Positions 5,729 through 64,000 of a DNA stretch of 64,000 bases are shown piece by piece. The DNA is taken from positions 1,763 to 65,762 of the forward strand of contig CAWHEA010000023.1 in the NCBI GenBank assembly GCA_963828265.1. The letters run 5' to 3'. Position 1 is the stretch's first letter. Every line of letters begins with the position of its first letter. The position numbers and the translations under genes are program-made. The DNA is from an uncultured Gammaproteobacteria bacterium (lineage in GTDB: Bacteria > Pseudomonadota > Gammaproteobacteria > Steroidobacterales > Steroidobacteraceae). The notes beneath the pieces were generated by a model. It ran no database searches, was not told the DNA's origin, and was given only the letters and a program-made list of their open reading frames with translations.

Positions 5729-6725
5729 GCGACATGGACAACCAACAGACGAAATCGATACTGACGGTGGCCCTGATGGCGGCATTCGCCGACGGGCTCA
5801 AGGATGAGCGCGAGCGCGAGTCGATCCGCAAGCTGGCGGAGGCGCTCGGGGCCGAAGCCAGCATCGACCTGCCGGCCTGGTACCGCGACGTCCTGCTCGT
5901 CGCGTCCCGACCTCACCGAAGTCGTGAAGCCGCTCGATACGCAGGGACTGCGCCAGTACGCCTACGAAATGGCCGTCGGCGTCGTCAATGCCGACGGTTC
6001 GCAGAATGCGGCCGAAGCTGCCTTCCTCGCGCAATTGGCAGCGGCGCTGCAGTTGCCCACGGCTGCGGCGGAGTCCGTCGCGCAGCAGGCGAGTGCGATG
6101 GCGGATGCTGCCGTCGAGCCCACCGGTCCCGCGGCGCCTGCAGGCGCGGCGACGGCTGCTGCCGCACCGACGGCGGTGGCCGGCACCGTGCTCGGCAAGG
6201 CGAACGTGAGCGATGCCGAAATGGACAAGACCATCACTGACCGCGTCGATCACCAACGCGGCGCTCGAGTTGCTGCCGGAATCGATCGCGTCGATGGCGA
6301 TCATTCCGCTGCAGCTGCGTCTCGTGTATCGCATCGGCAAGGCGTACGGCTACGAGATGGACATGTCGCACGCGAAGGATTTCATCGCCACGCTCGGCGT
6401 CGGCCTCACGTCGCAGTACGTCGAGCAATTCGGACGCAAACTGCTGGGCGGACTGCTCGGTGGCCTCGGCGGCGGTATCGGTCGTTCGCTCGGTCGCCAG
6501 GCGGCCAGTTCGGGTCTCACGTTCGCCACGACCTACGCGATCGGTCGCGTGGCGCAGCGTTATTACGCGGGCGGCCGCACGCTCGATTCGGCGACGCTCA
6601 AGGAAACGTTCACGTCCTTGCTGGCCGAGGCGCGTGGCATGGCCCCGAAGTACCAGTCACAGATCGAGCAGGCCGCGCAGACGATCGACACGCGCAACCT
6701 CGTGTCGCTGGTGAGGCAGGGCTGA
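5725..6725 (+). CDS. TerB-like N-terminal domain fused to a DUF697/EcsC-like C-terminal domain (frame-disrupted)
   Basis: The N-terminal segments SILTVALMAAFADGLKDERERESIRKLAE and YAYEMAVGVVNADGSQNAAEAAFLAQLAAAL are TerB-like. An Ala/Pro linker follows. The C-terminal LLPESIASMAIIPLQLRLVYRIGKAYGYEMD...GGLLGGLGGGIG is DUF697-like. Frame changes occur near 5900 and 6235. Confidence 0.5.
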
Positions 6726-22890: not shown

Positions 22891-23127
22891 GCGACGCAAC
22901 CGCAAAGGGGCTGAGCGAAGCCAAAGGGCGCGAAGGCCTGCCGCGCCGACGGCGTCCCCGGTCCGGACGCGCTCCGAAAAGCCGTCCCGCCATGGACGCT
23001 CGCGGCCGGCGCCCCCATGGACGGGTTTACGGCGTTTTCGGAGCGCCTCCGGACCGGAGACGCCTGGCGGCGCTGCGCAGGCCGTCGCAGTCCTTGGCTT
23101 CGCCGCCCTTCGCCTCGGTTGCGCCGC
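22891..23127. repeat. Large imperfect inverted repeat (~105-bp arms, ~19-nt centre), MITE/REP-like
   Basis: The left arm GCGACGCAACCG...GCGAAGCCAAAGGGCGCGAAGGCCTGCCGCGCCGACGGCGTCCCCGGTCCGGACGCGCTCCGAAAAGCCGTCCCGCCATGG pairs with the right arm CCATGGACGGGTTTACGGCGTTTTCGGAGCGCCTCCGGACCGGAGACGCC...TTGGCTTCGC...CGGTTGCGCCGC. Aligned by eye, with scattered mismatches and indels. Confidence 0.7.
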
Positions 23128-23163: not shown

Positions 23164-23171
23164 TCGCCCCG

Positions 23172-23285
23172 CTCATCGAGACCGGCTGAGGGAATGGCCC
23201 TTTGAAGCCGGGGCAACCATCGGGCCCAACCCGCCCGAAATGGTGCCAACTCCACGGGGACCATTGCGCGTCGCCGGAAGATGAG
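23172..23285 (+). promoter_or_regulatory. SAM-I (S-box) riboswitch aptamer
   Basis: P1 CTCATC/GATGAG. P2 CCGGC-TGAGGGAATGGCCCTTTGAA-GCCGG with a kink-turn-like GA motif. Junction GCAACC. P3 TCGGGC/GCCCGA. GGTGCCAACTCC. P4 CGGGGAC/GTCGCCG. Located upstream of metX-metB. Confidence 0.85.
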
Positions 23286-23425
23286 TTGCAGCGAGGCTGC
23301 CCCGGCCAGTTTCACGACGGACGGGGGTGTTGGTCGCCGCAACCATCCCCGCGCGCGCAGAGATCTACCCACACGTGGTTGTCGTCTCGACCGGCAGGCC
23401 GGCACGGGCCTCGACATGCGTGCCC

Positions 23426-32179: not shown

Positions 32180-33590
32180 GTGGATTTTCTCGTCGATCAC
32201 GCCGGCGCCCCGGGCGCTGCGACCGCGCACGAGCTTGACGCTCGTCCTCCAGTCCGACCTGGCCCGCTGGCTCGAGGCCCAGGATGCATCGGCGCGAGCC
32301 TGGGTCGCCGCGACGGGATTCAAGGCCGAGCGCCACCAGGTGGTGCTGCTGCCTGTCGCCCGACGGCGTCCCGCGCCGGGCGGCGCTGGGCCTCGGCACG
32401 CTGCCGTCGATCGACGCGCTCGAACTCTGGCACGTGGCTGGCCTGCCGGACCGCCTGCCGGCCGGCACCCATTGGCGCGTCACGAACGAGCTCACCCTCG
32501 CTGCGGCGAACGCGCTCGTCCTGGGCTGGGCCTACGGCAGCTACCGGTTCGACGCCTACAAGTCGGCCAGGCCAGCCACGGCGCGGGCACGTCTCATCGC
32601 GCCGCCTGCCGTCGATCATGGGCACGTCGTGCAGACTTGCGGGTGCAACGGCGCTCGCACGCGATCTCGTCAACACGCCGGCCTGCGACATGACGCCGGA
32701 GCGGCTGGCCGCCGAGGCGATCCGCATCGCGCGCGATCACGGCGCGTCGCCGCAGGAAATCATGGGCGATGAATTGAAGCGCGGATTCCCCGCCATCCAC
32801 GCCGTGGGGCAGGCTTCCGCGTGCGCCCCGCGTCTCGTCGATTTCGCCTGGGGCGATCCGACGCATCCGAAGGTGACGCTGGTCGGCAAGGGCGTCTGCT
32901 TCGACACGGGTGGCCTCGACATCAAGCCGTCCGCCGGCATGGCGCTGATGAAGAAGGACATGGGCGGCGCGGCGTGCACGCTGGCGCTGGCGCAGCTCGT
33001 CATGCAATCGCAACTGCCCGTGCGGCTGCGAGTGCTGATTCCAGCCGTCGAGAATGCGATCGCCGGCAATGCGTACCGCCCGGGCGACGTGATCCGCACG
33101 CGCAAGGGCGTGACCGTCGAGATCGGCAACACCGATGCCGAGGGCCGGCTGGTGCTGTGCGATGCCATCGCGCTGGCCGACGAAGAAAGCCCCGACCTGC
33201 TGATCGACCTGGCGACGCTGACCGGTGCGGCACGCGTGGCGCTCGGCCCTGAGTTGCCGGCCGTGTTCGGCACGCGACAGGAAACCGTCGACGCGCTGTT
33301 GCGGCAGGGCCGGCGCGCTGGCGGATCCGCTGTGGCAGATGCCGCTCTGGAGCGGCTACGACGACGACATCGCGAGCAAGGTCGCGGACATCAACAACGC
33401 GTCGGCCTCGGCGTTTGCCGGCGCGATCATCGGGGCGCTGTACCTGAAGCGGTTCGTGACGAACGCGCAGGACTGGGTGCACGTCGACCTCTTCGCGTGG
33501 AACCCGAAGGAGCGGCCCGGCCGTCCCGTGGGGGCGGAGGCGCATGCCGTGCGCGCGCTGCACGCCATGCTCGTCGAACGCTATGCGTAA
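32180..33590 (+). CDS. M17 leucyl aminopeptidase family protein (frame-disrupted)
   Basis: LVGKGVCFDTGGLDIKP, MKKDMGGAA and the NTDAEGRLVLCD signature. Four frame changes occur, near 32210, 32345, 32620 and 33310. Confidence 0.82.
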
Positions 33591-33620
33591 ACAGGGCGGG
33601 CTGCACCAGGCAGGTCGGTT

Positions 33621-33674
33621 CAGTGGCTCGTCCGGAGCGCGTGTCTGCCTTTCCAAGCGCAGGACGAGCCGCTG
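33621..33674 (+). repeat. Conserved-loop hairpin repeat (core GTGTCTGCCTTTCC), copy 1
   Basis: CAGTGGCTCGTCC-ggagcgc-GTGTCTGCCTTTCC-aagcgca-GGACGAGCCGCTG, in the intergenic space between the M17 peptidase and the next gene. Confidence 0.75.
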
Positions 33675-33688
33675 AAGCGACCTGCAAC

Positions 33689-34949
33689 GTGATCGACCTG
33701 AGTTACGAGCGGCGTGCCTGGACGCTGATCTACCTTTGCCTCGGACTGGTCGAGGGCGGCACCGCGGCCGTCATGGTCCGCTCGCTGTTCGGCGACCAGG
33801 CTCCCGCGCTCGCGGTGGATCTCGTCGTCGCCATCGTGAGCGCGGCACCGGCCTGGGCCAACCTGGCGAGCATGGCGTATGCGAGGCGCGCACAGGGCAA
33901 GCGCAAGGTCTCGTTCCTGTTTCCGCTGCTGCTCGCGATGACGGCGTGCGTGGGCGCCCTGGCGCTCGTGCCGAAGAGCGGGGCAGGGCTGCTGCTGTTT
34001 CTCGCGCTGTACGCGTCGGCGCGACTGCTCTGGGCCGGCGTCGAGACCGTGCGCTCGGTGCTGTGGAGCGTGAATTACCCGTCGCGGCTGCGCGCCCGCA
34101 TCACCGGACGCATCACGATCAACACCTCGATCGCGCTCGCCATCACCGGCCTCGGCATCGGCTGGCTGCTCGGGCACGAAGGTCCGTGGTGGCGCATCGC
34201 GATTGCCGTCGGTGCGGCCTGCGGCGTCGCCGGAGCGCTCGCGTTCCGCCAGTTCAAGGTCCGCCGCGAGGACGAACTGCTCGAAGCGGAGCGCGCGCGG
34301 GTGGTGGAAGGCGCGACCTTCGGCTTCGCGTGGCATGCGTGCGTTGCTCGCGCGCGACGAGGCGTTCCGGCGCTACCAGTACGCGATGTCGATGTTCGGC
34401 GCGGGCATGCTGTCGCTGACGCCGCTGATGGTGATCTGCCTCGGCGACGTGCTGCAGCTGCCGGCGTTGTGGCAGGTGCTGGTCACGACCGCGATCCCGG
34501 TCATGGTGGTGCCGTTCGCGGTCCAGCCGTGGGCACGTTATCTCGACCTGCATCGGGTGCTGGCGTTCCGTTCGGTGCATGGCAAGTTCACGGTGGTCGC
34601 GGTCGCGTTGCTCGTCGCGGCGGTACTGCTGCACATGCCGCTGCTGCTCGCGCCGGGCGCCGTGCTGCTCGGCGTCAGCATGGCGGCCGGCAGCCTCGGC
34701 TGGACGCTGGGCCACAACGACTTCGCGCCGCGCGGCGAGGAGACGCGTTACATGGCCCTGCACGTGACGCTGACCGGCATGCGCGGCCTGGTCGCGCCGC
34801 CGCTCACGATCGCGCTGTATCACGTGCTCGGCAGCCTGCACGCTGGACTCGGTCCGGCGGCGCTGCTGGTGCCGCTGCTGTTCGTCATGGGCGGCGCTTA
34901 CCGCTTTCATGTCATGCATCGCCTGCAGGTGTCCGCAAACGCCGCGTGA
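33689..34949 (+). CDS. Polytopic membrane protein, MFS-like transporter (frame-disrupted)
   Basis: About 12 hydrophobic segments, with a GTG start in the frame of ORF 32180..34984. It continues in the frame of 34203..34949. The frame changes near 34330. Confidence 0.5.
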
Positions 34950-35010
34950 CCGCGGCACCCGCAAGCCGCACAATTGCCCCGTGAATTTATTTCCGCCCGG
35001 AGCCCGTTCG

Positions 35011-39548: not shown

Positions 39549-40768
39549 ATGAGGAAGGCGAGTTTCGTTCTCACCGGCGCGCTTGCGATGGCGGGCTGGC
39601 TCGGTGTCGCCGGCACCCTGCTGGTGGTTCCGGCCACTGCCGAGGCGCAGCAGAAGGTCAGCCAGAAGGTCGGCGTGCCGCTCAAGGCGGCGCAGGACAG
39701 CATCTCCAAGAAGAAGTGGGATGCGGCGCTCGCCAAGATCAAGGAAGCGGACGCTGCCCCGGGCAAGACGGCGTACGACCAGTACAAGATCAACGAGATG
39801 CTCTGGTACGTGTACCTGCAGCAGGGCCGCAATGCCGACGCGGCGCGCGTGCTCGAAGGCCAGATCGCTTCCGGCCAGATGCCGGCCGGCGAGAAGGTGC
39901 ACGCGCACCAAGACGCTGGCGCAGCTCTATGCCCGCGCGGGCAACTATGGCAAGGCGGCGTCGACGGCGCAGCAATACCTGAAGTCCGTTCCGGGCGACA
40001 AGGACATGCAGCTGCTGGTCGCCAACGCGTACTACCAGCAGAAGGACTACAAGGGCGCGATCGCCGCGGCGGATCGCGTCATGAAGGGCGGCGGCACGCC
40101 GAGCCAGGACCTGCTGCAGCTCGTGCTGCGCTCCAACTACGAGCTCGGTGATTCGGCCGGCACGGCCAAGGCGCTCGACCAGCTGCTCAAGTACTACCCG
40201 ACGACCGACACGTGGGAACGCGTGCTCGACGGCTACCTGAAGACGACCAAGCACGACCACGCGCTGATGGCGCTGTATCGCCTTGCCGAGGACGTCGGCG
40301 CGCTCAAGACGGCGCGACAGTTCACCGACATGACGCAGGCCCTCGATCATCGGCGGCTTCGGCCAGGAAGGCGAGCGCGTCATGCAGAAGGGCATCGCGG
40401 CGAACGTGTTCACCGGCGACGAGATGACGCGCGCCAAGCGCACGCTCGATGCCGCGAAGCGCAAGGCTGACGCGGAACGCGTGGCACTGCCGAAGGCGGC
40501 GGGCGCGCTTGCTGCGGCCAAGACCGGCGACGAGATGGAAAAGGTCGGCGAGCTGTACTTCAGCGCCGGTGACTATGCCAATGCGTCGGCGGCCCTGCAG
40601 AAGGCGGTCGCCAAGGGCGGCCTGACGGACGCGGACAGCGCCGAGATGCTGCTGGGCATCGCGCTGAAGCGCAAGGGCGACAAGGCCGGCGCGCAGAAGG
40701 CGTTCGATGCGATCAAGGATCCGAAGTTCGCGGAAATCGCGAAGCTCTGGAAGATCGCCGCGCGCTGA
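39549..40768 (+). CDS. Secreted tetratricopeptide-repeat protein, paralog 1 (frame-disrupted)
   Basis: Signal peptide MRKASFVLTGALAMAGWLGVAGTLLVVPATAEA followed by TPR-like helices. The C-terminus LYFSAGDYANASAALQKAVAKGG...IAKLWKI is shared with the 42779..44063 paralog. Frame changes occur near 39905 and 40355. Confidence 0.7.
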
Positions 40769-40810: not shown

Positions 40811-40840
40811 AGGGCACGGACGAAAGTTCGTGCCCTTTTT
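40811..40840 (+). terminator. Intrinsic terminator after TPR paralog 1
   Basis: AGGGCACG-gacgaaagtt-CGTGCCCT followed by TTTTT. Confidence 0.8.
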
Positions 40841-40902
40841 CATGGCGCCCTGACGCTGATACGAGCAAGGCCACTGAGTCGGACGCCTGGTCGAGGGCGT
40901 CC

Positions 40903-40975
40903 GTTCCGGGTCTTCTGCCGGGCGAGCGTGTCTGCCTTTCCGCTCGCTCGGAGAGGACCCGGATCGAAGGCCTGA
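40903..40975 (+). repeat. Conserved-loop hairpin repeat, copy 2 (long-stem form with flanking GGACCCGGATCGA module)
   Basis: TCCGGGTCTTCTGCCGGGCGAGC-GTGTCTGCCTTTCC-GCTCGCTCGGAGAGGACCCGGATC. The arms pair imperfectly. Confidence 0.7.
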
Positions 40976-41544
40976 TCAACCGCGCCTGTGCGAATTCTTG
41001 CCAACGCCCGAGAATTGGCACAGCGCATCTCGGTCGATCATGCCGTGTGATCATCATCGGGCACATCAATCCCTCTCATCGCATTGCATGTGCTCCTGCT
41101 GGCTTCCACTGTGCGCCTGCATCAGCTTCTGTCGCTCCTTCGGATCGGTGTCTGCGGCTCTGGTCCATCTGCCCTGCAGTGCTGTAATCTTTCCTGCATC
41201 GCTGACATCTGGGGTTCCATGTCAGCGGCGCGATCGCCAGCTTATCCGGCGACGAACGGGTCGTTGCGCCGACGCGGTGGGCGTCGACGAGGCGCAGACG
41301 ACGCTCGCGGCGATCAGGACTGGGGTCTTCGCGCAGCGCTCGATCTTCGCCTGGTCAGGCAGGTCCGGTGACTGCCGGCGGCCAGCGACACTTCGACACC
41401 GAGGTATGGCACAGCGGCGACATGGACCTTCGACCTTTATCGATGCTTCGGCAGCGACGAGAGGTCGTCGAATCGCTCGGTCGGGAAGTCCTGACTCCGC
41501 GTACCACCAGAGCAACCGGTAGACGCTCGCCATTACTCTGCAGG

Positions 41545-42066
41545 TCATTGGTGCGGCTTCTCGACGTAGGTGACCATGTCGATGCCGGGGCGACGCTCCG
41601 GCGAGTGCGCACCAGCGTCCCGTGAGCGCCGAATCGGCGTGACAGCCGACGTGGACCATCAGCATAGTCCGGCACTCGTGGTCCACGGATAGCCGACTTT
41701 CATCCTGCAGCAGGCTGAGGGCACGCCCATCGGGCGGGCCGGAATCACGCGACGGATCCGGGTACGATGAGTCGGCGACTGTCAGCTCTCGCCGTGGCGA
41801 AAAGTCGCCCAGGAGAGGTAGCTGGCCGATCCGCAGCCGCCCTTTTCGCTTGTAAGAAACGATAGCCACGCCGCCCGCCGCCTCGACCGGCGGGTCGAGC
41901 CTTGACCCATTTCCAACGGCAGCTGGGGGCGCGCTCGCGGGAGTTGCGGGGGCTCGCCGCGGAAGTCGCCGTGATTCCAGACCCGATGCTCGCCGCTGCC
42001 GCGCAGCAGCGCTGCGGATCCAGCGAGAACGGTGCGACGGGAGACAATCCGGCAGTGCGCCTTCAT
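41545..42066 (-). pseudogene. Possible RES-domain toxin gene, readable only across several frames
   Basis: The high-GC3 frame from ATG 42066 gives MKAHCRIVSRRTVLAGSAALLRGSGEHRVWNHGDF..QLPLEM, resembling the RES N-terminus (..R.....L.G.G.....GRW(N/H)..G....LE). An adjacent frame gives LGDF...ADSRRLIVPGS, which is VPS-like. The tail AHSPERRPGIDMVTYVEKPHQ-stop is back in the first frame. Pattern-based call, not verified. Confidence 0.35.
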
Positions 42067-42293
42067 GGGCTTCCATGTTGACCTCCGATCGAAGTAGTGC
42101 AGCCGAGCTGGACTGTGGCTTGGCAGTCACCGCGGACCTCGGCATCTTCGCTACGGATTCTCGCCGCCAGCAGCGGTCCGGCGTTCTCAGGTGAAACCAC
42201 TACCCGACGGCGCGAGGTTGCGCGCCGTGGCGAAAGCTCGTAGCAGCGCAGAGGCGTCCCAACCGACGTCATCGCCTCCGCAATCACGCTCAA
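42063..42293 (-). pseudogene. Possible Xre/DUF2384-type antitoxin remnant upstream of the RES-like gene
   Basis: Across frames: W-F-H/SPENAGPLLAARIRSEDAEVRGDCQATVQLG resembles the W..P......P..L......V...L..I..G C-terminal motif of RES-associated antitoxins. A GGAGG lies 5 nt before an ATG at the junction. Very tentative. Confidence 0.2.
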
Positions 42294-42314
42294 CGTGCGC
42301 AGTAGCGTACGTGC

Positions 42315-42695
42315 CTAGCAGCATGCGCAAGCGGGCTCATCGCTGCCGGCCGAGTAGAGCCACACTTCGCCGACCGCGAGCGAGCGGCCGGCCTTCATCA
42401 GCTTGCACACACCGACGATGTCCTGGCCCGACGAAGGCTTGCGCAGGAAGTTGACCGTCAGGCTCGTCGTCACGGCGAGCGGGACGATGCCGAGCCGGCC
42501 GAAGATCGCGACGTAAAGCGCGGCGTCCGCAACGGCCATCAGCACGGGTCCGGCAACGGTGCCGCCCGGACGCAATTCCTCGACCCCGATCCTGTGCCGA
42601 ACGGTGGCGGAGTCCGCGTCGACCGCTTCGATCGACACCTTGCTCTGCGGGAACGATTCCGCCATGAAGTCGCTGATCTGCTGCAAGGTCGCCAC
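42315..42695 (-). CDS. PaaI-family hotdog-fold thioesterase (3' end possibly frame-disrupted)
   Basis: GTG start. IEAVDADSATVRHRIGVEELRPGGTVAGPVLMAVADAALYVAIF...SLTVNFLRKPSSGQDIVGVCKLMKAGRSLAVGEVWLY is typical of PaaI/YdiI-type thioesterases. Confidence 0.55.
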   Translation of the reverse strand: MATLQQISDFMAESFPQSKVSIEAVDADSATVRHRIGVEELRPGGTVAGPVLMAVADAALYVAIFGRLGIVPLAVTTSLTVNFLRKPSSGQDIVGVCKLMKAGRSLAVGEVWLYSAGSDEPACACC

Positions 42696-42778: not shown

Positions 42779-44063
42779 TCAGCCAGCCGCAGGAGCAGGA
42801 GCAGCGGCGGGCGCCGCCGTATCGAGCTTGAGCTTCCAGAGCCTGGCGATGTCGGTCAGTCCCGGTGCCTTGACCGCGTCGAACGCGGTGCGAGCTTCGG
42901 CCAGCTTGCCGAGGCGGGAGTTCGCGATGCCCGCAAGCATGTTCGCGTCGTCGATATCGGTCACGCCGCCTTTCGCCAGGCCCTTCTGGATCGCGTCGAC
43001 GGCGTTGGCGTAGTCGCCCGCGCTGAAGTACAGCTTGCCGATGGCGACCATCTGCGTGCCGGTCTTCGCCGCCGCCAGCTGCGCTGCCGCAGTGCCGAGG
43101 TCCTTGGCGTCCGCGGTCGCGCCGGTGCGGGCACGCTCGAGGTCCGCCTGCGCGCGCGCCTTCGAGTCGCCCTGCAAAAGGTTGCCCGCCATGCCGCGCT
43201 CGAGGACCTGCTTGGCTTCGTTCGGGTAGCCGCCGTTGACGAGCGTGCTGCCCATCTCGGCGAACTCCTCGCCCTTGTCGAGCGTGTCGGTGTCGTTCAT
43301 CAGGCGGTAGAGCGAACGCAGGCCGCGGTCGTCCTTCGTGCGGTAGAGCTGCGCGTTGAGCAGGTCTTCCCAGTACTTGGGCTGCCGGGTAGTGGCGCAC
43401 CAGGCCTTCGAGCGAACGCATGATGCCGGGTTCGTCCTTGAGTTCGTAGTTCGAGCGCAGGGCGAGCAGCAGGGCCGCTTCGGCGGGCTTCGGGCTCGAG
43501 GCGATGAGTTGCTCGGAGGCCGCCTTGGCGCCCTTGAAGTCGTTCGACAGGTAGCGGGCCTGGGCGAGTGAGAGCGCGATCTCCGCGTCGTTCGGGTTGA
43601 GCTTCAGGTACTCGGTGCCGCTCGCGATCGCCTTGTCGTACTGCTTGTTCTGCAGGTTCATCTGCGTGAGCGCACGCAGCCGCTGCGGCTTGTCGGCGTC
43701 GGGGACCATGCCCGAGGCCAGCGAGCGCTCGAGGATCTCGGCGGACTTCACGTAGTCCTTCTTCTGCAGGTAGATGTACCAGCCGAGTTCGTCGACCATG
43801 AAGGCGTCATAGGGCGTCTTGGGCTCGACTGCCTGCGCCGCCTGGATCTGGACGAGGGCTTCGTCCCAGTTCTTCGCGGTCATGGCGTTCTGCGCCGCAA
43901 CGAGCGGCTTCTGCACCGCCGGGCTCAACTTCTGCTTGGCAGCCGCCTTTTCCTTTTCGGCCGCGACGGCGACCGAAACGGGCAGCAGCGAGCCGCCGGC
44001 CACGCCGACGAGCCCGGCCGCGGCAAGGGCAGCCATCAACACTAGGTTCGCTTTCTTCATCAT
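42779..44063 (-). CDS. Secreted tetratricopeptide-repeat protein, paralog 2 (frame-disrupted)
   Basis: Signal peptide MMKKANLVLMAALAAAGLVGVAGG and TPR helices. The C-terminus LYFSAGDYANAVDAIQKGLAKGG...IARLWKL is paralogous to 39549..40768. The frame changes near 43385. Confidence 0.7.
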
Positions 44064-51141: not shown

Positions 51142-51781
51142 ATGACGGGCAATGCAGCCGACACGTACACCACGGTCGGCTACAGCTCGCCGAGCTTCAG
51201 CGCCGGGGTGCGCCCGGCCGTGCTCGTCGTCGATTTCCAGCTGGCCTTCACGGATCCGCGGTGGCCCCTCGGCGGGTTGCCGCTGATCCACGCCGCACGT
51301 GACCGCACGGCGCGATCTGCTCAAGCTCGCGCGCGAGAAGGACGTGCCGGTCGCGGCGTGCTACACGGCCTATGGCAGCCTGGCCGACATGCCGTTCTGG
51401 AAGGTGAAGCCGGTCCGCGACGAGTTCTTCTATGGCGATCCGTGCACGGCGATGGATCCGAAGATCCATCACGAGAAGAATTTCACGTACTGCAAGAACG
51501 CGCCGTCGATGTTCTTCCAGACGCCGCTGATCACGTTCCTGGTCAAGCAGCGGGTCGACACCGTGATCGTCACGGGCTGCACCACGAGTGGCTGCGTGCG
51601 CGCCACGATCGTCGACGCGTTCTCCTACGGCTTCCGCGTGCTCGTGCCTGACGAATGCTGTGGCGATGCGGAGGAAGGGCCGCACCAGGCGAATCTGGCC
51701 GACGTCGGTCGCCGTTATGCCGACGTGACGACCACGGCCGAGGTCGTGAAGTACATCAATGCGCTAAGCGCCGCGCGCTGA
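51142..51781 (+). CDS. Isochorismatase-family amidase (N-carbamoylsarcosine-amidase-like; frame-disrupted)
   Basis: PAVLVVDFQLAF, KNAPSMFFQTPL and VIVTGCTTSGCVRATIVDA. The frame changes near 51295. Confidence 0.72.
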
Positions 51782-51787
51782 TCAACG

Positions 51788-51905
51788 CCGCGCGCGCCGG
51801 AAAGGCAGACATGCGCGAGTTGCAGGCGCTCGACCCGGCATTGTCCTGCCGCGCTTGGAAAGGCAGACACGCGCGCGTCAGGACAAGTCGGGTCGAGCGC
51901 CTGAC
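51788..51905 (-). repeat. Two reverse-oriented copies of the conserved-loop hairpin, nested in a 15-bp outer stem
   Basis: GGAAAGGCAGACAT at 51799..51812 and GGAAAGGCAGACAC at 51857..51870. The outer stem is CAGGCGCTCGACCCG (51823..51837) paired with CGGGTCGAGCGCCTG (51889..51903). Confidence 0.7.
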
Positions 51906-51964
51906 ATCACCGTCATCTGTATCTTTTCCGAGTGCACGAACGGCTGAGGCGCTGCAAGGGGCGG

Positions 51965-52190
51965 TTGATCCGGGACCTTCCCCCGAGCGCGTGTCTGCCT
52001 TTCCAAGCTCGGGGGAAGGTCCCGGATCGACCGCCTGCAGCGAGCGCGTGTCTGCCTTTCCAAGCTCGGGGGAAGGTCCCGGATCGACCGCCTGTAGCGC
52101 GCGCGTGTCTGCCTTTCCAAGCTCGCGGGAAGGTCCCGGATCGACCGCCTGCAGCGAGCGCGTACCTGCCTTTCCTAATTGCGAAAGGAC
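51965..52190 (+). repeat. 57-bp head-to-tail tandem array (about 4 units) of the conserved-loop hairpin element
   Basis: GTGTCTGCC recurs at 51991, 52048 and 52105, and GTACCTGCC at 52162, giving a period of exactly 57. The first unit has perfect 22-bp arms: GATCCGGGACCTTCCCCCGAGC / GCTCGGGGGAAGGTCCCGGATC. Confidence 0.85.
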
Positions 52191-52194
52191 AGCT

Positions 52195-53443
52195 TCAGAC
52201 GTGCGTTGGTTCGGATTCGTCGACCAGCACCGTGACGGCGACGTCCGCCGTGACGTTGCCGATCGTGCGGAAGATGTCCGGCAGGATCTCGACTGCGACG
52301 AGAATGCCGAGCACGTCGACGGGCAGTCCCAGCGCGGCGCAGATCGGCGCGACGCTCGCGATGAAGGACACCTGGCCGGGCAGGCCCACGGAGCCGACGC
52401 TGACGGCGAATGGCGACGAAGATCGCGCCGATCATCTGCAGCACGCTCGGCTCGATGCCATACATCGCCGCAATGAAAAAGCAGACGCGCCAGGTTGCCG
52501 AGCGGGCTCGTGTAGCGAAATACGGCGACCGCCAGCGGCAGCACCAGGCTGGCGATGCGCGGCGACACGCCGCAGCCGTTCCCGCGCGCATTCGATCATC
52601 GCCGGCAGCGTTGCGAGCGAACTCTGCGTGCTGGCCGCGACCACCTGCACGGGGGCGACGGCCGATGGCGAACGCGCCGACACGCACGCGTCCCCGCAAG
52701 GCAACGACGACATAAATGAACAGCGTCGCGATCGCGATCACGGCGGCGACCGTCGTCGCGTACTGAACGAGCAGACCTGCCGCGCTGAGCCCTGCCTGGC
52801 GACCCACGCCGAGCGCCAGCGCGAACACGCCGATCGGGGCCACGAGCAGCACCCAGTGCACCATCACCACCATCGCCTCGGCCATGGCGCCGAAGAAGCC
52901 GGTCAACGCGTTGCGTTGCGGCGCGGGCAGCCTCGTGGCGGCAAAGCCGAACAGGATCGCGAACACCACGAGTGCCAGGATCGCGTTGTCTGCCGCCGCC
53001 GCAATGATGTTCGGCGGCAGCAGTTGCTGCAGCCAGTCCGTCCAGCCGATGCTCGTGACCGCGCCCGTGCCGCCCTGGCTCGCGCCGGCGATGAAGGCGT
53101 CGGCGGTTGCACGGTCCACCGGCCACAGCGCGAGCAGGCCTTGCGTCAGCAGGACCGCCAGGGTGCCCGCGACGAGCAGCAGGAAGGTGAACCAGCCGAT
53201 GGCCCGGGATGCCAGCCGTCCGGTCGCCATCGCGTCCGAGACGCTCGCGACGGCTGCGACCAGCATCGAGAACACGAGCGGTCCGACCGTCATGCGCAGT
53301 GCGTTGAGCCAGAGCGTGCCGATCGCTTCGATGCCGCTCGCGATCGAGTGCGCGAGCTCGCTGCCGGAGTGATCGATCCATGCGCCGAGACTGATGCCGA
53401 GCGCCAGCGCGCCGAGGACGATCCAGTGCTTCAGTTGAGCCAC
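52195..53443 (-). CDS. Dicarboxylate/amino acid:cation symporter (DAACS/GltP-DctA family; frame-disrupted)
   Basis: GTG start. Segments LNALRMTVGPLVFSMLV, GSVGLPGQVSFIASVAPICAALGLP and DIFRTIGNVTADV. Three to four frame changes occur between 52400 and 52720. Confidence 0.75.
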
Positions 53444-53453
53444 GGCGCGCGCG

Positions 53454-54258
53454 TCAGTTGGCCGCGAGCCAGTCGAACAGGGTCTGGGCGAAACGCACTT
53501 TCTGCTCCTTGCCGGCGACGACGTGCGCCACATCGTCCCACAGGATGCCCTTGGCGCCCGGAATTCCATGCTCGATCGGCAGCGTAGTGCGCGGCGACGT
53601 CACGACGTCCTTGCCGGCGTGGATGATCAGCGACGGGCAACGGATTGCATGCAGGCGGTCCTTCGAGTTGAACCCGACGCAGGCGTCGATCAGCCGCGAA
53701 TGCGCCTCGTAGCGGCCGTTGAGTTCCTTCCAGCCGCCGGACGGTCCGAGCAGCCGCTCCTTGTGCGCGTTGTAGTACTCCGGCGTCGAAGGAGAGCAGG
53801 GTGACCGCCTTCTGGAACGGCAGGAACCCAAGGTCACGGTGGATCCAGCGGAACATCTCGAGCTGGTCGCGCAGGAAGTCATCGACCTCGCACCAGGCGC
53901 CCATGTTGAGCATGCTGCGGGCGAGGTCCGGCCGGCGGATCGCGATTTCCTGGCAGACGCAGGCGCCCATGCCGACGAGGCCCATCAGGTGCACGTTGCG
54001 CAGGCCCAGGTGATCGAGCAGGCCGATCGCGTCGTTGGCGTGCAGCTCCATGGTCGAGGGCACGCCGAGGTCGTCACCGGACTCGCGAATGCCGCGGTAG
54101 TCGAACAGGATCACCTGGTAGCGCTCGGTCAGGCCGCGCGCCAGGTGATGGTGGTTGTCGTGGCAGAACGTGCCCCAGCCGCCCATGCACAGCACCGGAT
54201 CGCCTTCCCCCAGCACTTCGTAATACATGTCGTGGCCGTTGATGCGGGCGATGGGCAT
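53454..54258 (-). CDS. Alpha/beta hydrolase (frame-disrupted)
   Basis: MPIARINGHDMYYEVLGEGDPVLCMGGWG and the nucleophile-elbow-like LMGLVGMGACV. The C-terminus is CPSLIIHAGKDVV...AHVV. The frame changes near 53790. Confidence 0.7.
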
Positions 54259-61890: not shown

Positions 61891-62740
61891 TGCGGGTGCG
61901 GCTGCAGTGACGGTGTTCCGTTCCTGTTCCGGCGAGCGGAAAGGCAGACACGCTCGCCGGAACAGGAACGGAACACCGTCTCGGAGCGCAGATCGATCGC
62001 CAGAGGACCAGCTCATGCGTCGTCGGGCCGCGACCAACTGCGTCTGCGCAGCGACGCGTCAGCCGCGCTTGCAGCAGCTGCGGCAATACTTCGCCTGACG
62101 GTCCGCGCAACGAGAAATCGGCGAGCGGCGTCAGTGCGGTGGGTTCGGTGTTGATCTCGATCACTTTCGCGCCGCAACGTTGGGCGCTTTCGGCGAGCCC
62201 CGCCGCCGGGTACACGACCGACGCGGTGCCGATCGACAGGAAGACGTCGCAGTCGGCCGCGGCCGCATCCGCTGCCAGCAGCGCCTGCCGCGGGATCGCT
62301 TCGCCGAACCAGACCACGTCGGGACGCAGCAGCTCGCCGCAACGTGCGCATTCCGGGAGGCCGGTGACAGAGAGTGTCGAACGCCCGGCGAGCGTTCCTT
62401 CCGCGGAGCAGCGGTCGCGCAGGATGTTGCCGTGGTATTCGATGACGCCCGTGCTGCCCGCGCGTTGGTGCAGGCCGTCGACGTTCTGCGTGACCAGCGT
62501 CAGTCGCGGCACCCGATTGGCCAGTTGCACCAGCGCGTGGTGACCCGCGTTCGGCTCGACCCGGCGCACGAGTTCGCGGCGCCATTCGTACCATTCCCAG
62601 ATGCGCCTGGGATCGCGCGCGAAGGCTTCGGGTGTCGCCAGGTCCTCGGGGCGGAACTTCGCCCAGAGGCCGGTCTGCGCGTCGCGAAACGTGGGCACGC
62701 CACTTTCCGCCGAGATGCCCGCGCCCGTCAGCACGCACAC
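61826..62740 (-). CDS. cobB: NAD-dependent protein deacylase, Sir2/CobB family (both ends uncertain)
   Basis: VLTGAGISAESGVPTFRD, TQNVDGLHQRAG and CxxC...RPDVVWFGE. The catalytic domain covers about 62100..62740. The frame stays open upstream to 62818 (ITYPLLSAATALSAARH) with no canonical start. The 3' ~270 nt run through the hairpin repeat and are probably not coding. Confidence 0.75.
   Translation of the reverse strand: MCVLTGAGISAESGVPTFRDAQTGLWAKFRPEDLATPEAFARDPRRIWEWYEWRRELVRRVEPNAGHHALVQLANRVPRLTLVTQNVDGLHQRAGSTGVIEYHGNILRDRCSAEGTLAGRSTLSVTGLPECARCGELLRPDVVWFGEAIPRQALLAADAAAADCDVFLSIGTASVVYPAAGLAESAQRCGAKVIEINTEPTALTPLADFSLRGPSGEVLPQLLQARLTRRCADAVGRGPTTHELVLWRSICAPRRCSVPVPASVSAFPLAGTGTEHRHCSRTRITPGTRAPPARTGQRTASHRR
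61920..61989 (-). repeat. Conserved-loop hairpin repeat, perfect 28-bp-stem copy (reverse orientation)
   Basis: ACGGTGTTCCGTTCCTGTTCCGGCGAGC-GGAAAGGCAGACAC-GCTCGCCGGAACAGGAACGGAACACCGT. The stems are perfectly complementary. Confidence 0.9.
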
Positions 62741-62815
62741 GTGTCGTGCTGCGCTGAGCGCCGTCGCCGCGGAGAGAAGGGGATAGGTGATGGTTGCGCT
62801 TCCGCTTCCGACTAA

Positions 62816-62840
62816 CCCCTATCCCCTAACCCCTAACCCC
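62816..62840 (-). repeat. Heptamer repeat (GGGGTTA/GGGGATA x4), canonical G-quadruplex motif on the minus strand
   Basis: Plus strand CCCCTATCCCCTAACCCCTAACCCC, so the minus strand carries four G4 tracts with 3-nt loops. It overlaps the last codons and the TAG stop of acnA. Confidence 0.85.
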
Positions 62841-64000
62841 TGGCTCAGCGCCGCTTTGCCCTGCGCAGCCAGCTGACGGATCACGTACTGCAGGATGCCG
62901 CCGTGCTGGAAGTAGTCGCGCTCCTTCGGCGTGTCGATGCGCACGCGCGCTTCGAACTTGATCGCCGCGCCAGTGGCCGGGGTCGCCACGACGGTCACGA
63001 CCTTCGCGGCGCCGCCGTTCAGGCCGATGATCTCGTAGCTCTCCTTGCCGGTGAGTCCGAGCGACTGTGCGTTCTCGCCGTCCTTGAACTGCAGGGGCAG
63101 CACGCCCATGCCGATCAGGTTGGAGCGGTGGATGCGCTCGAAGCTCTCCGCGATCACGGCCTTGACGCCGAGCAGCATCGTGCCCTTGGCAGCCCAGTCG
63201 CGCGACGAACCCGTGCCGTATTCCTTGCCGGCGATCACGACGAGTGGCGTGCCTTCGGCCTTGTACTTCATGGCCGTGTCGTAGATCGACAGCTGCTCCC
63301 CGGTCGGCACGTGCACCGAGACGCCGCCTTCCGTGCCCGGCAACAGCAGGTTGCGCAGGCGGATGTTGGCGAACGTGCCGCGCATCATGACTTCGTGGTT
63401 GCCACGGCGCGCGCCGTACTGGTTGAAGTCGACGGGCTGCACGCCCTGCGCCATGAGGTACTTGGCGGCGGCGCTGGCCTTGGCGATGTTGCCGGCCGGC
63501 GAGATGTGGTCGGTCGTGACCGAGTCGCCGAGCAGGGCGAGCACGCGCGCGCCGCGGATGTCGGTCACCGCGCCCGGCGTCATCGTCATGCCTTCGAAGT
63601 ACGGCGGATTGCGCACGTAGGTCGAGGTCGGCTCCCACTTGTAGATCTCGCCTTCCGGAACCTTGAGCGCATTCCAGTTCTCGTCGCCGGCGAAGGCGCT
63701 CGCGTAGCCCTTCTTGAACATCGCGGAGTTGATGTTCGCCGCCATCGATTCCTGGATTTCCTGCGCGGTCGGCCAGATGTCCTTCAGGAAGACCGGCTTG
63801 CCGTCCGTGCCGGTGCCGATCGGCTCGTTGTTGAGGTCGATGTCCATCGTGCCGGCGAGCGCGTAGGCGACCACCAGCGGCGGCGACGCGAGGAAGTTCA
63901 TCTTCACTTCCGGATGCACGCGGCCTTCGAAGTTGCGGTTGCCGGAGAGCACGGAGGTGGTGACGACGTCGCCGGCCTTGATGCCTTCCGAGATCTCGGG
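62819..64000 (-). CDS. acnA: Aconitate hydratase A, 3' portion (continues beyond window)
   Basis: [57 protein letters not shown] and [12 protein letters not shown]. The frame is intact in the window. Confidence 0.92.

Follow-up and report, generated by a model that had tools for sequence, protein, structure and literature searches.

A REP-like family of intergenic hairpins with an invariant loop, compensated stems and a two-hairpin unit in Steroidobacteraceae-type bacteria

In a 64-kb stretch of DNA (the whole stretch analysed, hereafter the window) and in related genomes, we identified a family of intergenic hairpins in which the usual conservation pattern is inverted, loop and junctions being invariant and stems free to vary yet compensated, and in which two hairpins form a unit with a defined, presumably active, strand. 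The family is real, statistically solid and lineage-specific, and both its conservation logic and its two-hairpin unit are unusual. Forty years after REP-type repeats became known in bacteria, their spread and role are still debated. Tentatively, and with a confidence slightly short of even, we consider this family to comprise lineage-specific, non-coding and non-autonomous elements of a REP/BIME/REPIN-like kind, which would act as a folded single strand and be recognized through their loop.

The core motif GTGTCTGCCTTTCC, allowing up to two mismatches, occurs nine times in the 64 kb against 0.33 copies expected, and none of 100 shuffled sequences reached nine. Plus-strand copies begin at 33641, 40928, 51991, 52048, 52105 and 52162 (the last being the variant GTACCTGCCTTTCC), and minus-strand copies at 51799 (a variant starting ATGTCT), 51857 and 61938; the count of nine thus stands as first given, with one coordinate, 61948, corrected to 61938. 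All window copies are intergenic, as had also been proposed. A covariance model recognized five full hairpins in the window, each of about 90 nt, near-perfect and scoring 70-98 bits, together with partial units at 51795-51817, 52061-52156 and 52160-52177, and found no further diverged copies there. Every core lies at the center of a long inverted repeat. Moreover, the three strongest short-spacer inverted repeats of the window are the core sites at 61.9 kb (arms of 30 nt, 100% complementary), 52.0 kb (29 nt, 97%) and 33.6 kb (29 nt, 86%), so that the complementary arms reported earlier were recovered and are longer than had been claimed. Folded as single-stranded DNA, the five full copies gave -29 to -43.5 kcal/mol, with z from -4.7 to -11. 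A weak covariance-model match at 22956-23059 is a separate long palindrome outside the family. Insertion of a small core into pre-existing palindromes was considered and rejected, the window holding no family-type palindrome without a core ("empty").

Species-representative genomes scanned with GCGTGTCTGCCTTTCC yielded at least 113 loci; among the loci listed, at least about 83 came from 20 related assemblies (Steroidobacteraceae or uncultured Gammaproteobacteria/Proteobacteria), and the others were isolated chance matches in unrelated phyla. About 130 of the 190 distinct core sites in these loci and the window have a stem of 25-39 bp, and full hairpins are present in at least 21 assemblies including the window, all Steroidobacteraceae or unclassified Gammaproteobacteria MAGs. 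Several of the loci share synteny with the window, at 84-96% identity. When the covariance model, built from an alignment of 68 copies, was run on 727 kb of these loci, its matches were core-containing hairpins only. Viral contigs were rejected as carriers: their 64 exact 16-mer matches, none with complementary flanks, are chance or coding matches in unrelated phages. A literature search with the motif on both strands and with descriptive terms found no description of the family. Furthermore, Rfam 15 at gathering scores reported in the window only a SAM riboswitch and a tRNA, both elsewhere, and at a relaxed threshold (window and four loci) only generic miRNA-precursor hairpin noise far below gathering scores. 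So far, this is a REP-like intergenic repeat family without earlier description, restricted among the genomes examined to Steroidobacteraceae-type soil bacteria.

The main hairpin, P1, has a stem of 30-38 bp within a unit of about 90 nt, and its loop is invariant across the 68 non-redundant copies aligned. The loop counts 14 nt if the stem closes with GGCGAGC/GCTCGCC or GAGCGC/GCGCTC, and 18 nt (GC-core-AA) if it closes with GAGC/GCTC. The stem is semi-conserved at its top and base, whereas its middle part varies, the 5' arm there being rich in pyrimidines; the earlier statement that the stems differ completely therefore holds for the middle, and not for the base (CAGGCGnTCGATCCGG / CCGGATCGAnCGCCTG) or the GAGC/GCTC top, and a "second module" described as a separate element is merely the base of the 3' arm. 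All 28 P1 pairs of the RNAalifold consensus show double compensatory changes, which, together with the two-hairpin alignment described below, supports the proposal that a conserved loop on compensatory stems marks a selected structure recognized through that loop. One copy (L035) retains perfect arms around a decayed loop. Within a single genome nearly every copy has different arms, mostly 30-80% identical, and this counts against a REP-like reading, since REPIN populations are built around a master sequence.

A second hairpin, P2, accompanies about half of the copies, many others being P1-only. On the strand whose loop reads GTGTCTGCCTTTCC, which we call the Y strand, the P2 motif TGCGCCGT lies 5' of the loop in 66 of 120 full hairpins and on the other side in 16 of 120. 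This spacing is constant (83-89 nt, with a long variant of 117-121 nt), and P2 itself varies in length (23-32 or about 55 nt). Its consensus is TGCGCCGT-GCGA(stem)loop(stem)TCGC-TCAGGCGCG, with invariant junctions, and the complete strand-specific unit of about 170 nt reads 5'-ACGYTGCR-TGCGCCGT-(P2 hairpin)-TCAGGCGCG-(P1)-GCCTGCAAC-3', where P1 carries its 30-38-bp stem and the loop (GC)GTGTCTGCCTTTCC(AA). An alignment of 46 non-redundant P2-P1 units has the layout ACGYTGCR-TGCGCCGT-GCGA(variable stem)-loop-(stem')TCGC-TCA-GGCGCG-(about 8 nt)-P1, and conservation sets in about 8 nt before TGCGCCGT. The consensus folds into a closing helix P2a (GCGCC/GGCGC, 5 bp), a covarying P2b, and P1; P2a has independent compensatory variants (GCGGC/GCCGC, GCACC/GGTGC and GCGCG/CGCGC). 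In this alignment 96.6% of cells are paired versus 75.7% in shuffles, 35 of the 40 pairs are doubly changed, P2a included, and the covariation score is 0.571, which none of 500 shuffles (0.176) reached and which compares with at most 0.13 in slid controls.

Within the window P2 accompanies the 40.9-kb copy only, besides one degenerate P2. The 40.9-kb P1 hairpin (40889-40979, plus-strand core at 40928-40941, 70.5 bits) adjoins a P2 module at 40975-41033 on the minus strand, which reads TGCGCTGT-GCCAATTCTCGGGCGTTGGCAAGAATTCGC-ACAGGCGCGG and matches the family consensus. The unit as a whole thus lies on the minus strand, and its loop is flipped with respect both to the family rule and to the orthologous copy in L060, where the same arms hold the inverted loop. 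This copy follows a TPR-protein gene and that gene's own intrinsic terminator. The degenerate P2, at about 42203-42252 on the plus strand, is probably a P2 left without P1, as suggested by the family consensus and by L060, in which a full hairpin comes after the orthologous P2; the window lacks that hairpin, the 106-nt indel corresponding to the whole palindrome, and no target duplication is visible at this empty site.

Selection acts on the structure as a folded single strand, and the two strands are not equivalent, one mattering more. With orientation anchored by P2, the Y strand shows 58 G:T wobbles versus 17 A:C mismatches; for P1 alone over the full set, with orientation taken from the loop, the asymmetry is weaker (100 versus 68) and transversion mismatches are as frequent as wobbles. 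An excess of wobbles on one strand is also what would be expected of the main rival explanation, which we consider somewhat unlikely, namely that these are host-selected cis-acting RNA elements at gene 3' ends (a U-tract-independent terminator, an insulator, a block to 3' exonucleases or an RNase III site) with a protein-bound loop, spread long ago and now kept by selection. The architecture of invariant loops and junctions, covarying stems and a P2 of variable length is indeed like that of an RNA family. Against it, near-perfect stems of 30-38 bp in which, over the full set, transversions are as common as wobbles resemble a DNA palindrome, and no sigma-70-like promoter occurs at a fixed position on either strand. 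A terminating element had been among the original candidates; however, none of the five window hairpins is followed by the T-run that, behind a GC-rich hairpin, makes an intrinsic terminator, and no terminator is predicted in 51500-52400.

Gene context is likewise informative for an RNA role. The hairpins lie between convergent genes in 57 cases, tandem genes in 39 and divergent genes in 2, counts that are approximate, our own gene caller being noisy because of frameshifts in the assemblies; placement is therefore nearly always downstream of genes, as such a role would predict. Of 58 units oriented by P2, 45 face a convergent gene on the P1 side, with about 15-100 nt between P1 and the stop of that gene, which resembles a 3'-UTR element and speaks against the REP-like reading. 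On the other hand, the wobble-tolerant strand is antisense to that convergent gene, an arrangement that is awkward for an RNA element and fits no model cleanly. Where single copies lie between co-directional genes, both orientations are seen, which also argues against an RNA role, and two window copies are opposite in sense. The first, a P1-only hairpin at 33603-33692 on the plus strand (core 33641-33654 in the loop, 76.5 bits), fills the 98-nt gap between the stop of an M17 aminopeptidase gene at 33590 and the GTG start of a membrane-protein gene at 33689. The second, at 61900-61989 on the minus strand (core 61938-61951, perfect 30-bp arms, 82.4 bits), begins 19 nt past the stop (61890) of a PF03601-family gene. 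Three orthologs, L006, L079 and L056, retain the 33.6-kb copy nearly unchanged, although the coding DNA on either side, less well conserved than the hairpin, has diverged by up to 16%; that some copies outlast coding flanks across species suggests selection at the level of the host, and favors an RNA role over a REP-like one. GC skew, used as a proxy for the direction of replication, gave 10 positive and 19 negative site clusters, a weak bias confounded by gene orientation.

Neighboring copies in opposite orientation are arranged as (-,+) in 47 cases and as (+,-) in one, with the P2 modules facing inwards. This polarity presents the same face of the pair to each convergent gene, which again suits an RNA element, and is also what one would expect if a TIR transposon or MITE had the cores at its ends as sites bound in double-stranded form, each end holding several in the manner of Tn7-, Mu- or Tn402-like elements, and the hairpins were by-products. 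We consider the latter explanation very improbable. It is in keeping with the tandem copies, which repeat every 57-58 nt across all genomes and form direct-orientation arrays that always extend outwards from an innermost full hairpin; however, a single hairpin consists of one core within complementary arms rather than of an element end, and compensated stems in two hairpins, as well as the strand asymmetry of wobbles, would be left unaccounted for.

The 51.8-52.2-kb cluster in the window contains such a pair; an isochorismatase-family gene and an SDF-family symporter gene converge on it from either side. From left to right, it comprises an outermost partial unit on the minus strand (51795-51817, core variant ATGTCTGCCTTTCC at 51799-51812), a full minus-strand hairpin (51818-51908, core 51857-51870, 81 bits) downstream of the isochorismatase-family gene (stop 51781), a spacer (51909-51952), a full plus-strand hairpin (51953-52042, core 51991-52004, 97.7 bits) and 57-nt tandem units, each made of loop, outer arm and linker, on the plus strand (52041-52175, cores at 52048, 52105 and 52162). 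The tandem array spans 51984-52175 with a period of 57 nt and 3.4 copies, and its last core, the variant at 52162-52175, directly adjoins the stop codon that ends the minus-strand symporter gene (52175-53569).

Comparison of orthologous sites revealed that these elements change in several ways. Besides the loop flip at 40.9 kb, a second flip distinguishes L071 from L109, in which the arm feet are colinear and distinguishable and the apex alone is inverted; in total, 2 of 19 orthologous single-copy pairs are flipped. At 52 kb, L077 and L089 carry the entire hairpin-spacer-hairpin segment, the spacer included, as the reverse complement of what the window and L048 have, an inversion that must be recurrent, since the orientation states disagree with sequence relatedness. 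The 52-kb arrays differ in length in all four orthologs. At other orthologous sites the arms are 55-67% identical versus 94-96% for the flanks, a swapped apical arm variant (tcgttcttccc) recurs at unrelated sites, and L004 holds a chimeric hairpin with two arm types joined within the core. L066 and L025, of the same clade, hold a paralogous copy of the 52-kb pair with the same spacer; homology stops exactly at the outer cores, and no target duplication accompanies this copy. That flips are tolerated with the element retained, and that close relatives differ by gains, losses and swaps of copies, argues against a host RNA function. Taken as signs of mobility and of dynamics in the DNA itself, the changes listed here speak for the REP-like reading. 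The second hairpin, the strand asymmetry, the strict polarity of pairs and the flips and inversions between orthologs were all absent from the first description of the repeat.

DNA located between partners also varies. An 867-nt insert with an Rce1-like (CPBP protease) gene is present in L028 and absent in L022, a Gp49/HTH toxin-antitoxin pair separates the partners in L049, and 1.3 kb without a credible ORF separates them in the window and L060 and is absent in L080. As candidate transposases, the genes between widely spaced inverted copies were rejected on the same evidence: they encode an Rce1/CPBP protease or a Gp49/HTH toxin-antitoxin pair, and elsewhere the intervening DNA has no ORF. 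In this context, the cores could be sites of a site-specific recombinase, inverted pairs being invertible or able to accept cassettes in the manner of attC or of Xer-dependent pdif modules, an explanation that we judge quite unlikely. The recurrent inversion at 52 kb against the order of relatedness, the chimera with its junction in the core, the paralogous homology ending at the outer cores and the varying cargo would all follow from it; homologous or hairpin-stimulated recombination between repeats, however, predicts inversions and chimeras equally, and the L028 insertion lies in mid-spacer, away from unit boundaries. In addition, no recombinase gene stands beside any module, and variable arms around a conserved center are the reverse of tyrosine-recombinase (lox/dif-type) sites. 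The attC sites of integrons are conserved at the base of the stem (R''/R'), form arrays in direct orientation and have an adjacent integrase, and pdif sites are dif-like and 28 bp long. The family resembles attC in having palindromes variable in sequence and conserved in structure, and resembles pdif in carrying toxin-antitoxin cargo between inverted sites. Unlike attC and pdif, it lacks RYYYAAC/GTTRRRY boxes, a nearby integrase and 28-bp dif-like sites, and its copies are dispersed among housekeeping genes and arranged in inverted pairs.

The same observations bear on transposon ends. Cores that bound the paralogous pair, and cargo between such ends, are as expected of them; in contrast, neither the single empty site nor the paralogous pair has a target-site duplication, and no transposase was found in or near any module. 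ERIC and Correia MITEs possess conserved terminal inverted repeats, TA target duplications and copies that are similar to each other. They share with the present family imperfect palindromes of about 100-150 bp, co-transcription with neighboring genes and the possibility of long RNA hairpins, and differ from it in that its arms vary, its center is conserved and duplications are lacking at the two sites just mentioned. In two assemblies a hairpin pair is carried inside an unrelated MITE with 26-nt terminal inverted repeats, and only hairpins within that TIR-bounded MITE are near-identical and multi-copy, which also counts against the REP-like reading.

The REP/BIME-like assignment rests on how the family appears to work, and is made by analogy. 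REPs are 20-40 bp long, with stems of 8-13 bp, loops of 4-5 nt and an unpaired GTAG or CGTC tag; they lie between convergent or co-directional ORFs, downstream of genes, and form dimers with a preference for one polarity (Di Nocera et al., 2013; PMC3733652). Heterodimers also occur, spacers measure 20-100 bp and may have small stem-loops at their ends, and DNA can be inserted between partners (PMC3733652). The family is alike in all of these features of organization, as high-copy palindromic intergenic repeats (at least 113 loci) placed downstream of genes (57 convergent, 39 tandem and 2 divergent) in dimers of one polarity (47 versus 1) and heterodimers, with small stem-loops at spacer ends and DNA inserted between partners. 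RAYT enzymes, in turn, bind folded single-stranded REPs through their structure and a short conserved motif (Corneloup et al., 2021; PMC8266576). It is this match of organization with REPs (PMC3733652), joined to recognition of a folded strand by RAYT (PMC8266576), that led us to file the family as REP/BIME-like. The REP/RAYT-type candidate of the original prediction is thus plausible as regards organization, by analogy only, and membership of REPs proper fails on anatomy: stems of 30-38 bp, a conserved loop of 14-18 nt and a unit of about 90 nt exceed REP dimensions, and there is no tag, the P1 flanks GTTGCAGGCG and CGCCTGCAAC pairing with each other and CGTC occurring in some copies beyond P2. 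The missing GTAG/CGTC tag counts against the REP-like reading. Unlike in REPs and BIMEs, moreover, the loop is invariant, the stems vary among nearly all copies of a genome, and P2 is present in half of the copies.

REPINs associated with RAYT are inverted doublets that fold as a single strand, leave no target duplication and persist vertically (Bertels and Rainey, 2011; PMC3116915; PMC8266576). In such systems the two REPs build one long hairpin, copies are near-identical, and the genome encodes a RAYT (a Y1 HUH transposase), typically with cognate repeats on its flanks. Here, too, the likely unit is an inverted doublet, the folded single strand is presumed active, structure is combined with a short motif, target duplication is absent, and copies persist vertically at their sites. 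Differences are that partners with different arms do not co-fold, loops alone being complementary, that there is no master sequence with a mutational cloud, and that the candidate recognition motif lies in the loop and not 5' of the stem. Miniature elements derived from IS200/IS605 are similar in being strand-specific, with two different hairpins on the same strand (P2 on the 5' and P1 on the 3' side in our family) and without TIRs or, in our family at the one empty site, target duplication; their hairpins are subterminal at both ends and their genomes encode TnpA (Y1). In contrast to them, copies of the family are not near-identical, P1 is far longer than their end hairpins, and orientation in the window is mixed, without uniform bias relative to one direction of replication.

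Under the REP-like reading that we prefer, the unit would be active when one DNA strand, that with the loop GTGTCTGCCTTTCC, becomes unpaired and folds. The invariant apical loop and the P2 junctions might then be read by a trans-acting protein, for which a single-strand-specific nuclease or transposase of the HUH type would be the likeliest candidate, as RAYT is for REPs, and the stems would be constrained by pairing alone, hence their compensated drift. Copying, together with recombination at the loop or within the palindrome, could generate new copies, 57-nt arrays, flips, inversions, chimeras and arm replacements; copies would survive downstream of genes only, where they would fold in read-through RNA too. 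When the window and the 113 loci examined, together about 0.9 Mb and only a few percent of each genome, were searched by tblastn with E. coli RayT, nothing scored below E = 1, and the genes beside units in the same 0.9 Mb include a single recurrent family, which is unrelated, and no TnpA/TnpB, HUH, recombinase, integrase or transposase. This outcome in a few percent of each genome counts against the REP-like reading. An unlikely further explanation is that the units are the substrate of an unrecognized strand-specific system, in which a protein other than RAYT would read loop and junctions in DNA or RNA, and tail-to-tail pairs would serve as insulated "landing pads" between convergent genes for cassettes that come and go, such as the toxin-antitoxin pair, the CPBP protease gene and the 1.3 kb of non-coding DNA; if true, it would imply a new organization of intergenic space and of gene flux, based on loop recognition with free stems.

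The 14-18-nt loop and the P2 junctions offer a bait for the partner protein, and the strand asymmetry indicates which strand to test. Orthologous sites with flips, swaps, arrays and cargo changes are a natural record of the reactions involved. Finally, the long palindromes, 57-nt arrays and inversions described here can mislead the assembly of soil MAGs from this clade and the calling of their genes.

In the related assemblies CAWJXS and CAVVBC, the family hairpins were also found as the cargo of a miniature inverted-repeat element (MITE) of ~370 nt, bounded by terminal inverted repeats of 26 nt (CTAGGGAGGCTCTGCACAGGTCCGCA) and present in at least five near-identical copies per genome. Among the loci recovered from these assemblies by scanning for the loop core, copies were located at L045, L055, L057, L042 and L003 (CAWJXS), and at L097, L105 and L107 (CAVVBC). 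The cargo is a family hairpin pair whose core start positions lie 105 nt apart; the family hairpins in the MITE are hitch-hikers on a second, unrelated mobile element.

In the window, GGGCACGGACGAAAGTTCGTGCCC with a TTTTT tract behind it (40812-40840) forms a canonical intrinsic terminator immediately after the tetratricopeptide repeat (TPR) protein gene and upstream of the 40.9-kb family hairpin. Since this terminator precedes the hairpin, the TPR-protein gene has no need of the latter for its termination. Between the two units of the widely spaced pair lie 1.3 kb (40980-42315) in which neither a credible ORF nor a Pfam match was detected, and which could represent a gene that has decayed, or encode a non-coding RNA. 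This spacer is ~85% conserved in the related locus L060, where the adjacent coding DNA reaches 96%; it has no counterpart in L080. Furthermore, two inverted segments of ~70% identical DNA (40503-40756 and 42830-43090), one of them within the TPR-protein gene, enclose the hairpin region at 40.9-42.3 kb; L060, L080 and L056 share this layout.

Regarding P2, the second covarying hairpin of the repeat unit, a subset of units (L012, L076, L083, L058, L034 and L094) carried variants ~30 nt longer, with a partly conserved insert (gggatgc.gccccgccttggtc...); this partial conservation suggests an extra sub-structure. Immediately past the P2 end of the unit, CT-rich microsatellite-like runs (CTTCCTCCC...) were observed in L030 (~6540-6600) and at the orthologous site of L023, and a poly-G run at that of L046.

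A long imperfect palindrome of ~180 nt, distinct from the family hairpins, occupies 22918-23105 (inner arms 22961-22995 and 23016-23052), immediately upstream of a SAM riboswitch (23170-23287). The GTGTCTGCCTTTCC core is absent from this palindrome, which gave a weak match to the family covariance model (17 bits).

Around the 33.6-kb hairpin, apparent frameshifts were observed at ~33200-33260 and ~34200. The M17 aminopeptidase frame switches between the ORFs 32180-34984 and 33225-33590, and the membrane-protein gene downstream of it continues in another frame from ~34203 on. Both frameshifts are probably long-read assembly indel errors, or else mark pseudogenes. Lastly, a tandem heptamer (CTAACCC, 4.3 copies) was found at 62812-62841, where two ORFs meet.
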